64,000 bases of DNA, taken from contig JAHLWR010000020.1 in the NCBI GenBank assembly GCA_019057815.1, forward strand, positions 1-64,000, given 5' to 3'. The notes beneath the pieces were generated by a model. The model worked only from the letters and a program-made list of their open reading frames with translations, was not told the origin of the DNA and ran no database searches. Of this stretch, positions 41,478 through 44,236 are shown one piece after another. Within the stretch, counting starts at the first letter, position 1, and each line of letters begins with the position of its first letter. A program made the translations under genes and the position numbers. Source of the stretch: Candidatus Heimdallarchaeota archaeon. GTDB taxonomy: Archaea; Asgardarchaeota; Heimdallarchaeia; Heimdallarchaeales; Heimdallarchaeaceae.

Positions 41478-42335
41478 TTATTCACTTTCTTGATCCTTTT
41501 TACCAGAAATATCAACTAAAACCTTTTTTACAGCTTTTTGTACATACAAACTCTCATCATCGACCATTTCAAGTAAAGGAGCGACCGATTTAGGGGTTCC
41601 AAACGTTCCTAAAGTTTCTGCTGAACATTTTCTTACATACCAATTGGAGTCATGGATAGCAACATGTAAAAGATTCATGACCACCTCTCCACCAATTTTA
41701 CCTAGAGATTCTGCAGCTGTTTCTATTACATCATGAATATCGTCTGTCATCATCAGATCATATAGAGGTTGAATCGCTTTTGGGTTACCTATTTCACCTA
41801 AAGACCATGCTATTTGCTTTCTGATTTCCTTTTCAGAATCTCCCAAGAAACGAACTAGAATATCTATGTTGAATTTCTCTAATTTTACAATTTCATCCCA
41901 TTTTTCTTTTGCAATTAAAAGTAGAACATTCTCAGTTTTATCTGATGGTTTCCACCCCATATACTCCAAGACAACTGCAGATTCACTTCTAGCTTCCCAG
42001 TTATTGTCTAATAATAGCGCTATTAGTACAGGTTTTGATTCCAGTGCCCACAGCTCTCCTAAAGCCCTTATGGCACTTTTTCTTACTGCTCCACTATCAT
42101 CCTTCAATTGCTTAATTAAAGGTGCAACAGCTCTTTTATCTTTAATTTTTCCCAGAGCCCAAGCTACTTTGGCTCTAACTGCTGATTCTTCATCTCTAAG
42201 AAGTTTTATTAATGACTCAACTGCTTTCGTTCGATTTTTATTGTCGACAATTGCCTCAAGAGTATACATCCTTAATAATGGATCAGCCCCATCTAAAGAT
42301 TCTACTAATGTAGCAATGTCATCTTCATCTAGCAA
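41478..42335 (-). CDS. HEAT/PBS-lyase repeat protein
   Basis: VRAKVAWALGKI-type repeats. Confidence 0.88.
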   Translation of the reverse strand: MLDEDDIATLVESLDGADPLLRMYTLEAIVDNKNRTKAVESLIKLLRDEESAVRAKVAWALGKIKDKRAVAPLIKQLKDDSGAVRKSAIRALGELWALESKPVLIALLLDNNWEARSESAVVLEYMGWKPSDKTENVLLLIAKEKWDEIVKLEKFNIDILVRFLGDSEKEIRKQIAWSLGEIGNPKAIQPLYDLMMTDDIHDVIETAAESLGKIGGEVVMNLLHVAIHDSNWYVRKCSAETLGTFGTPKSVAPLLEMVDDESLYVQKAVKKVLVDISGKKDQESE

Positions 42336-42373: not shown

Positions 42374-42627
42374 AAGATGTTTGCATTTCATAAACGCACG
42401 TTATGAAACTTGGTTAAAATTGCCAGAGGCTTTCTAACCGTCGTTTGAAGGGGGTTTCGCCCTTGACCCCTCACGTGCGTTGAGGGGTAGTCCTGAAGAC
42501 TTTTCCGTTATAGTTAGTTTGTCATCACCACAGAGCTAGCTAGGCTCCCTGTTTCATGGTGAGTTTACTGAGGGACAACCACTTGTGTAGTTGCGAAACA
42601 GGTAAGTGATGATGATCACGCTATCTC
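42374..42627 (-). ncRNA. Unidentified multi-domain structured RNA with a kissing loop
   Basis: GC-enriched intergenic island with many stems. Mismatches read as G-U only on the minus strand. Complementary 7-nt hairpin loops. TATA box upstream. Confidence 0.65.
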
Positions 42628-42649
42628 TACTTATATATTTTTAAATTCA

Positions 42650-42657
42650 TATATAAA
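42650..42657 (-). promoter_or_regulatory. Archaeal TATA box for the putative ncRNA
   Basis: TTTATATA on the minus strand about 23-30 nt upstream of 42627. Confidence 0.5.
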
Positions 42658-42868
42658 CCCGTAGAAAAAAAGAGTTAGTTTTTATTCTTCTTCTACATAG
42701 CCATTTATGCTGTTAGAACGCTTATGGCAAGATTAGTCAACTTTTCTACACTCAGTGGACGACGGTAATAAAATTCAATAAAAAGAAGATTATAGAAAAG
42801 CTATGTAGAGAAACCAACACTTAAATTTGTGATGAAACAAATTATAAATAGTTTTCATTTAATGAAAG

Positions 42869-44236
42869 GTGACAAAAACGACTGAAGAAAAATACACAAA
42901 GGAAGAAATGTTAGCAAAAGCTAGCAAACCAGCCGAAGAGGCTTTAAAATTACACCCTTATTATAAGGGTAAAATTCAAATTGTTCCCAAATGCAGTATT
43001 TGGGATTTTGATGCATTTGCTGTGTGGTATACTCCAGGTGTTGCTGCCAGTTGTAGAGCAATAAAAGAAGACCCAGCAGAATCTTATAGACATACAAACA
43101 GAGCAAATACTATTGCAATAGTCTCTGATGGAACAAGAGTTCTCGGGTTAGGAGATATAGGTCCAGCAGCAGGTCAACCTGTTATGGAAGGAAAAGCACT
43201 GTTGTTCAAATATCTGGGTGGTGTTGATGCAGTACCATTGAGTATTGATACAAAAGATCCTGATGAAATAATTAAGTTTGTTAAATTAATACAACCTTCA
43301 TTCGGTGGTATAAACTTAGAAGATATATCAAAACCAAAATGTTACAAAGTCTTAGAGACATTACGTAATGATCCTAAAATTACAATTCCGGTATGGCACG
43401 ATGATGCACAAGGAACCGCTGCAATTGTAACTGCTGGAGTTCTTGGCGCTTTAAAACACGTTGGTAAGAAACTTGATGAAGTTAAGATTGCCATGCTCGG
43501 TGTAGGTGCTGCTAATACTCGAACAGCCTACGTTCTTCATGCTGCTGGTGCTCCGTTTGAGAACATAATTATGTGCGATTCCAAGGGTATTATTACCAAA
43601 GATCGTCCTGACATTATTGAGCAGAAAGATTACGACACTTTCAAGTATGATTTAGCTCAAAAGACCAACCCAGAAGGAATTACTGGTGATTTTGGTGTCG
43701 CTCTCCAAGGTGCTGATGTTCTCACTTCAGCTTCTAAATCTGAACCAGGTACAATCAAGAAAGAATGGATAACCAACATGGCAGAAGATTCTATTGTTTT
43801 CACATGTGCTAATCCTCTTCCAGAGATTTGGCCTTGGGATTCTAAAGAAGCTGGTGCAAGAGTTGTTGGAACTGGTCGAAGCGACTTTCCAAATCAAATT
43901 AATAACAGTCTTGGTTTTCCAGGTATTTTCAGAGGAACACTCGATGTTAATGCTAGTACTATTACTGATGAGATGTGTGTCGAAGCTGCTCGTGCTATTG
44001 CTGAAGTTGCAGAAAAGAGGGGTCTTAGAGATGATTTCGTTATTCCTTCAATGGATGATGTTGAAATCTTCCCCTATGTTGCGAGTAAAGTTGGCATGAA
44101 AGCTATTGAACAAGGTGTTGCTCGAATAATTATGGAAGAAGACGAATTATACAAAATTGCTAAAGAACAAATTAAATATGCTCGTGACCTCACAAAAAAC
44201 CTGATGGATACTAATTTCATCAAACCAAAAATTTAG
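42869..44236 (+). CDS. NAD(P)-dependent malic enzyme
   Basis: YTPGVA, DGTRVLGLGDIG, MEGK, NLEDI, HDDAQGT, ANP and NQINN motifs. Confidence 0.94.
   Translation: MTKTTEEKYTKEEMLAKASKPAEEALKLHPYYKGKIQIVPKCSIWDFDAFAVWYTPGVAASCRAIKEDPAESYRHTNRANTIAIVSDGTRVLGLGDIGPAAGQPVMEGKALLFKYLGGVDAVPLSIDTKDPDEIIKFVKLIQPSFGGINLEDISKPKCYKVLETLRNDPKITIPVWHDDAQGTAAIVTAGVLGALKHVGKKLDEVKIAMLGVGAANTRTAYVLHAAGAPFENIIMCDSKGIITKDRPDIIEQKDYDTFKYDLAQKTNPEGITGDFGVALQGADVLTSASKSEPGTIKKEWITNMAEDSIVFTCANPLPEIWPWDSKEAGARVVGTGRSDFPNQINNSLGFPGIFRGTLDVNASTITDEMCVEAARAIAEVAEKRGLRDDFVIPSMDDVEIFPYVASKVGMKAIEQGVARIIMEEDELYKIAKEQIKYARDLTKNLMDTNFIKPKI

Follow-up and report, generated by a model that had tools for sequence, protein, structure and literature searches.

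A 368-bp segment without an open reading frame (42761-42394, minus strand) in the window, as we call the whole 64,000-nt stretch of Candidatus Heimdallarchaeota DNA that was analysed, is very probably a non-autonomous derivative of an IS607-family transposon that carries a standalone ('ghost') omega-RNA, mobilised by TnpA and read by TnpB in trans. The segment is dispersed, inserts by a fixed rule, shares parts with a gene-bearing parent and encodes an RNA whose structure covaries. We read it as a standalone omega-RNA, and not as a host ncRNA or a leader of the adjacent HEAT gene, because it has its ends, its promoter and the 3' ~95 nt in common with the parent, because the RNA has a pseudoknot, and because host flank lies at the position of the guide. 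A sequence-only reading of the same DNA had proposed a novel Asgard ncRNA. The RNA is indeed from Asgard archaea, bears a promoter and lies outside Rfam, but its identity is a different one, since the right end of an IS607/TnpB element, with its omega-RNA, makes up the 3' half. The candidate 'new Asgard ncRNA' is thereby corrected to a transposon guide-RNA cassette.

A mobile repeat between two host genes

The element occupies the gap between a malic enzyme gene (42869..44236, plus strand) and a divergent HEAT/PBS-repeat gene (41478..42335, minus strand). The latter is a downstream bystander, and its start lies 58 nt beyond the end of the folded RNA. All the stems that the sequence-only reading had listed were found in place on the minus strand, and the structured RNA it described is real: the region folds with a z of -4.4, none of 200 shuffles was equally stable, and the helices covary. 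The Rfam search that it had suggested gave no family at threshold with covariance models that included SRP, RNase P, riboswitches and ribozymes. At E values up to 10, both subfamilies of the RNA returned noise only, with no match to a ribozyme, RAGATH-18, the IS605-orfB motif or an intron. RNase P RNA is encoded elsewhere in the genome, as is a probable SRP RNA (90.5 bits, just below the cut-off), so we rejected the idea that the feature is either of these in disguise.

The same reading had implied a single locus, but the feature is a mobile repeat with multiple copies. The source genome (G000) holds five complete copies and several fragments in unrelated flanks, the complete copies being 87-93% identical over the RNA. 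All copies end at the base equivalent to 42394, and those with an intact left end start at the equivalent of 42761. Read depth over the element is several-fold higher than over its flanks, with loose ends at both boundaries. A sister species (G001) has the HEAT gene with the same upstream region, and its HEAT and malic enzyme flanks are 94-95% identical to those here, with the element absent between them; a metagenome contig (run X3) is also without the element at this locus. One other copy (G000:C27:57832-58199) breaks a reading frame of at least 210 codons. A decayed copy that lacks the core and contains an internal duplication of 38 nt (G000:C12:159422-159685, L045) lies 1.1 kb from a complete one and is also present in G001:C336. 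No viral contigs carrying the element were found.

The insertion rule can be read from two G001 insertions, whose base-exact empty sites in G000 consist of ACCGT followed directly by the right flank. ACCGT stands once in the empty sites, so insertion occurs without target duplication and the GT is shared. At the present locus this target motif, which is also the predicted TAM, is at 42762..42766 (minus strand); its last two bases are the likely crossover core and are matched by a GT at the 3' end of the element. ACCGT was found before nearly all of the 15 distinct left ends scored. Described IS607 members have a GG core (PMC13565253), whereas the core dinucleotide here is the GT of ACCGT. We regard this as a variant and not as a reason for exclusion from IS607, because the transposase profile passes its cut-off. 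In run X1, one contig joint returns across most of the element, which fits a circle or a neighbouring copy alike.

From its left end, the element runs through a tnpB-type promoter, a 5' RNA domain at the place of the ORF, and the core to the right end. The left end (42725..42761, minus strand) is ~94% identical to that of the tnpA+tnpB parent (G000:C27:145861-145896), and a subterminal repeat within it (42740-42725) resembles the inverted right-end segment 42425-42410. The right end (42446-42436) also holds an inverted copy of the junction between target and left end. A 4-base ACYG-like motif is repeated at the target, the left end and the right end, and these may be TnpA binding sites. The promoter (42632..42689, minus strand) combines a T-tract with a TATA box at 42657-42649, which confirms the upstream TATA box of the sequence-only reading, and is homologous to the promoter preceding tnpB in parent elements (local alignment scores of 44-55, against shuffle maxima of 36-45). 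Transcription is predicted to start near 42630; a sigma-70 promoter scan is not informative for an archaeal host. One metatranscriptome contig spans a related copy and extends beyond the TATA box. For that reason it may be DNA or read-through, and we rejected it as a discrete transcript. In the empty allele, the sequence at 42393-42386 looks like a TATA box and lies ~50 nt ahead of the HEAT start; one base differs here, and the HEAT gene could be driven by read-through from the promoter of the element.

The gene-bearing parent and the probable omega-RNA core

The parent is a 2.7-kb element (G000:C27:145861-148591) that encodes an IS607 serine transposase and a 652-aa protein and shares its left end, promoter and last ~95 nt with the gene-less element. 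Two further copies in G000 keep only a gene for a 652-aa-type protein and a tnpA remnant. The parent transposase matches NF033518 with 154.6 bits against a cut-off of 110, scored on the reading after a stop. Codon 11 of tnpA is an in-frame stop in this assembly, and a further stop interrupts the full-length copy examined from G001; current mobility is therefore doubtful.

The 652-aa protein gives weak matches to TnpB/Cas12f2 profiles, far below the cut-off, and has a zinc ribbon (PF07282). Across 98 homologues, RuvC residues D434 and E533 are invariant and H618 is nearly so, making the triad D-E-H and not the canonical D-E-D; D-to-H at RuvC-III is a described TnpB rearrangement, with activity presumed (PMC10691335). 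A predicted model of the protein (pLDDT 84.8) matches Cas12f and the IS607 ISFba1 TnpB best (E 5e-9 to 3e-8), and by that model it is a Cas12f/TnpB-fold protein. The sequence-only reading had offered the HEAT protein as partner of the RNA; the likely partner is instead this 652-aa TnpB, encoded elsewhere.

A divergent clade of the same TnpB, at 40-50% identity (L100, L102, L183-L202; G000:C22:28130-30260), keeps the pseudoknot described below and looks domesticated. Its guides are conserved between genomes and resemble the antisense of parts of a neighbouring tRNA gene; ARAGORN called such genes for Cys, Ser and Asn, and inspection by eye added Leu and an intron-type gene. The C22 copy of G000 differs in repeating a motif that lies ~150 nt downstream. 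G000 also has at least four further TnpB-like families, roughly 370-505 aa in length and with 3' ends of their own, on C1, C10, C12, C26, C30, C33, C38, C39 and C40, and one of them stands back to back with the C12 copy of the present family. Distant homologues of 1200-1800 aa (P0154, P0163, P0184, P0191) have their RuvC end in common with the 652-aa TnpB family.

The last ~95 nt of the element are common to 32 coding copies, in which they sit at the right end and overlap or follow the tnpB ORF. This core comprises a covarying stem-loop (42487-42467), shared with the tnpB copies, where it overlaps the end of the ORF; an optional hairpin (42464-42448), which this subfamily and the divergent TnpB clade possess and most other copies lack; and the long stem of the scaffold (42446-42406), which overlaps the right-end DNA repeat, all on the minus strand. 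The loop of the first (42480-42473) makes a pseudoknot with 42394..42401 (minus strand), which is both the 3' pseudoknot strand and the right end of the element; all copies stop there, with unrelated flanks beyond. Complementarity between 42480-42474 and 42400-42394 covers 7 nt, or 8 nt with a one-base extension. The two 7-mers singled out by the sequence-only reading thus do pair, but not in a loop-loop kiss. The supposed second loop is the last 7-8 nt of the element, and host flank supplies the 3' arm of that hairpin (42393-42386); the 'kiss' is a TnpB-type pseudoknot that joins a hairpin loop to a single-stranded 3' tail. Any part of the proposed pairing between the 5' and 3' ends that uses bases beyond 42394 likewise rests on variable flank.

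In an alignment of the mobile and divergent clades whose rows were partly hand-picked, seven of the eight pseudoknot pairs change on both sides and 93% are paired, counts that kinship can inflate. The same swaps appear in an unbiased extraction of sequences. The covariation check that the sequence-only reading had called for, the 7-mer pairing included, therefore turned up compensatory changes in homologues. A pseudoknot of this loop-to-3'-end kind is required in IS607 ISXfa1 and CboIStron (PMC10711439, 10.1101/2023.11.20.567912), and it has been reported to be essential for the ISDra2 guide RNA too (PMC10097598).

Host flank at the predicted guide position (42374..42393, minus strand) matches the empty donor site. 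More generally, the 84 right flanks are unrelated, and flanks match empty sites behind the predicted TAM. In this copy only, the first 8 nt of the flank pair back on 42408-42401. More than 4 complementary bases occur in one of the 84 distinct right flanks, namely this one, and seven of the eight bases of the flank arm already stand in the empty site of the sister species, which differs at the base that completes the stem. We therefore take the flank hairpin as chance in AT-rich DNA and reject a terminal hairpin as a conserved feature, though in this copy it might sequester the guide. When the guides of the G000 copies were compared with other host sites, no perfect 16-mer match was found, and none behind an exact CCGT.

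A 5' RNA domain confined to the gene-less copies

Upstream of the core lies a 5' RNA domain of ~140 nt (42488..42630, minus strand). It consists of P1 (42615-42606/42531-42522), a coaxial P2/P3 with P2 at 42602-42595/42555-42548 and a 19-nt bulge, a side hairpin P4 and a linker hairpin, with hairpins located at 42594-42575, 42547-42533 and 42501-42489. The bulge (42574-42556) begins with a conserved 8-mer and continues with a variable 11-mer. Two subfamilies, A (this element) and B (common in relatives), differ in their outer helices and share the coaxial P2/P3 and the bulge; in A and B the side helix lies on different sides of the junction. The helices covary. Overall, 96.8% of the shared 5' module is paired and 62 two-sided changes occur in it, where shuffles give 21 and slid controls no more than 18 (kinship can inflate these counts as well); P1 and P4 of subfamily A have compensatory changes too. 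Several pair types per column, together with many G-U pairs, point to selection at the RNA level, with this strand favoured. Because the parent lacks these helices, selection on them implies that the cassettes are functional RNAs and not debris.

Of 83 genomes of the class, 18 were found to contain the 5' module, and all of these belong to two genera within a single family; a sample of 151 genomes from the phylum yielded it in no further family, many of the genomes in both sets being incomplete. Homologues carry the names Heimdallarchaeota or Heimdallarchaeaceae. Pattern matches outside Heimdall archaea had neither the hairpin nor the right end and were rejected as chance.

Among coding copies, the sole exception to the restriction of the domain to gene-less copies is one decayed hybrid (G000:C21:21460-23809, L040), which joins the 5' RNA domain, minus its promoter, to a tnpA remnant and to an intact tnpB, and whose junctions are also seen as loose ends in run X1. 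The equivalent stretch of coding copies is unstructured (mean z of +0.55, versus -2.71). With no counterpart in the parent, the domain is evidently not needed for TnpB function in cis. In one gene-less copy (L027, G027:C11), it is mostly deleted and the promoter and core stand ~30 nt apart. We rejected an origin by divergence from part of tnpB or tnpA (alignments to the two clean parents do not exceed those of shuffles, and a model search of coding copies found only the C21 hybrid) and also borrowing from another TnpB family of this genome (no model match and no evident likeness in 3' ends). A literature search of incomplete coverage found no report of such a domain and no paper on this Asgard element family; the domain appears to be undescribed, as does the ACCGT target with a GT core.

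Proposed mechanism, alternatives and known systems

We propose that the element has lost both genes and kept the two ends, the tnpB promoter and the RNA cassette. By analogy with characterised IS607/TnpB systems, the parent TnpA would move it as a double-stranded circle with crossover at GT. The promoter would yield a ~240-nt scaffold followed by ~16-20 nt of host flank as guide, and the 652-aa TnpB from other loci would bind the pseudoknotted 3' core; IS607 TnpB works with omega-RNA supplied in trans. TnpB would then cut (or bind) the empty site left by excision, and repair would restore the element, as in the model of restorative homing reviewed in PMC13565253. We lean towards the view that TnpB does cut with this RNA. 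The parent's omega-RNA would be cut from the tnpB mRNA, whereas here it may be a primary transcript, which the extra 5' domain might cap and stabilise while aiding folding or the capture of TnpB in trans. We hold with middling confidence that the domain is a stabilising or loading aid, which is its most likely role, trans-regulation and self-cleavage being less so. The conserved bulge, complementary to the purine strand of the core stem, might dock there as a third strand or by alternative pairing.

It is unlikely, in our judgement, that the domain evolved in the gene-less IS607 satellites of Heimdall archaea as a dedicated RNA unit with its own activity, one that captures or redirects the parent TnpB in trans (by docking on tnpB mRNA or by scaffold switching) or that processes itself. 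If true, an RNA-guided nuclease would have an RNA-encoded parasite in this element, and the domain would serve as a portable module that improves guide loading.

We also think it distinctly unlikely that the RNA regulates its parent, the bulge pairing in trans with the leader or the embedded omega-RNA stem of tnpB mRNA to act as a decoy or capture TnpB. The two best duplexes of the bulge on three tnpB transcripts of G000 are indeed with the core stem and the leader, at about -10.5 to -11.7 kcal/mol. However, the leader match varies among relatives from -2 to -11.6 kcal/mol and in many is no better than chance internal sites. The match to the core stem, whose purine strand is the commonest best partner of the bulge, is explained equally well in cis, and no covariation was seen. 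Such regulation would in any case add to the guide role, not replace it. A bridge-like or antisense guide directed at the tnpB leader or the left end was rejected as inconsistent across genomes; the bulge is constant while left ends and targets vary.

Nor do we favour a passive miniature element, in which TnpA needs only the DNA ends and the RNA structure, a relic or by-product, has ceased to load TnpB; this is very improbable. The right end is under DNA-level constraint through the repeat that it has in common with the left end, and the cognate tnpA is broken in this assembly, both of which would fit. Against it, the promoter, the pseudoknot and the 5' helices are retained across G000 copies that have diverged by 7-13%, and the same parts persist in two subfamilies and many genomes with compensatory and G-U changes. 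IS607 transposes as double-stranded DNA, so it has no need of single-strand hairpins.

It is likewise very improbable that the domain acts as a self-cleaving ribozyme, generating the omega-RNA's 5' end and so standing in for processing by TnpB. The 5' domain does have a compact three-way junction and conserved single-stranded bases, and it occurs only where there is no tnpB mRNA to process. Yet neither subfamily matches an Rfam ribozyme at E up to 10, their side helices sit on opposite sides of the junction, and a primary transcript needs no cleavage; nothing supports a ribozyme role. A host housekeeping ncRNA or HEAT cis-leader, which the sequence-only reading had put forward and which the TATA box, the stable fold and the nearby HEAT start would suit, is refuted by the empty locus in the sister species and the metagenome contig, by dispersed copies in unrelated flanks, one of which splits an ORF, and by its restriction to two genera of one family among the genomes searched.

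Read as a standalone omega-RNA cassette, the element supplies coordinates for an uncharacterised, presumed RNA-guided nuclease family, with ACCGT as TAM, a ~95-nt minimal scaffold and a 652-aa D-E-H TnpB as its predicted parts. The hosts are archaea close to eukaryotes, and the arrangement parallels the eukaryotic Fanzor ghost loci. The points that stand out are the GT core, the oversized D-E-H TnpB and the ghost-only 5' domain, the last of which bears on why there are standalone omega-RNAs at all and on their competition for a nuclease supplied by other loci.

The closest comparison is with IS607 elements that carry an omega- or reRNA at the right end (ISXfa1, PMC10711439; CboIStron, 10.1101/2023.11.20.567912; ISFba1/RAGATH-18, PMC11061315, PDB 8iaz). 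As in those, the parent encodes a serine-recombinase TnpA and a TnpB, there is no target duplication, the core is a dinucleotide, the scaffold overlaps the 3' end of tnpB, and the pseudoknot joins a hairpin loop to the last bases before the guide. Unlike them, the present family has a GT core in ACCGT and a 652-aa TnpB with a RuvC-III His, this copy is gene-less, and its RNA resembles neither RAGATH-18 nor any other Rfam model. An IStron (a group I intron joined to IS607) was rejected, as no intron model matches and the 5' domain is only ~140 nt; so was an IS110 bridge RNA, as the parent encodes a serine transposase and the bulge is fixed while left ends and targets vary. In the ISDra2 TnpB omega-RNA (PMC10097598), the loop of the first stem also pairs with the 3' terminal bases, and the ORF-overlapping 5' region, unstructured in the present coding copies, is dispensable. 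ISDra2 differs in being of the IS605/HUH type, and its triple helix has been shown (PMC10097598), whereas here one is conjecture.

PATEs and MITEs, which derive from insertion sequences and carry no genes, are likewise short, non-autonomous and moved in trans, but those consisting of ends only lack the promoter and selected RNA cassette that the present element retains. Standalone omega-RNAs and Fanzor ghost loci have been documented (PMC10691335, PMC10432273). The present element resembles the OMEGA standalone omega-RNAs (PMC10691335) and the 'ghost' loci of Spizellomyces punctatus Fanzor (PMC10432273) in being a mobilised, ORF-less unit of transposon ends and guide scaffold beside effector-coding copies; the ghost RNAs of those systems differ slightly from the canonical scaffold and act in trans. 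It departs from them in its archaeal IS607 context and in its ~140-nt covarying 5' domain, which is missing from the parent.
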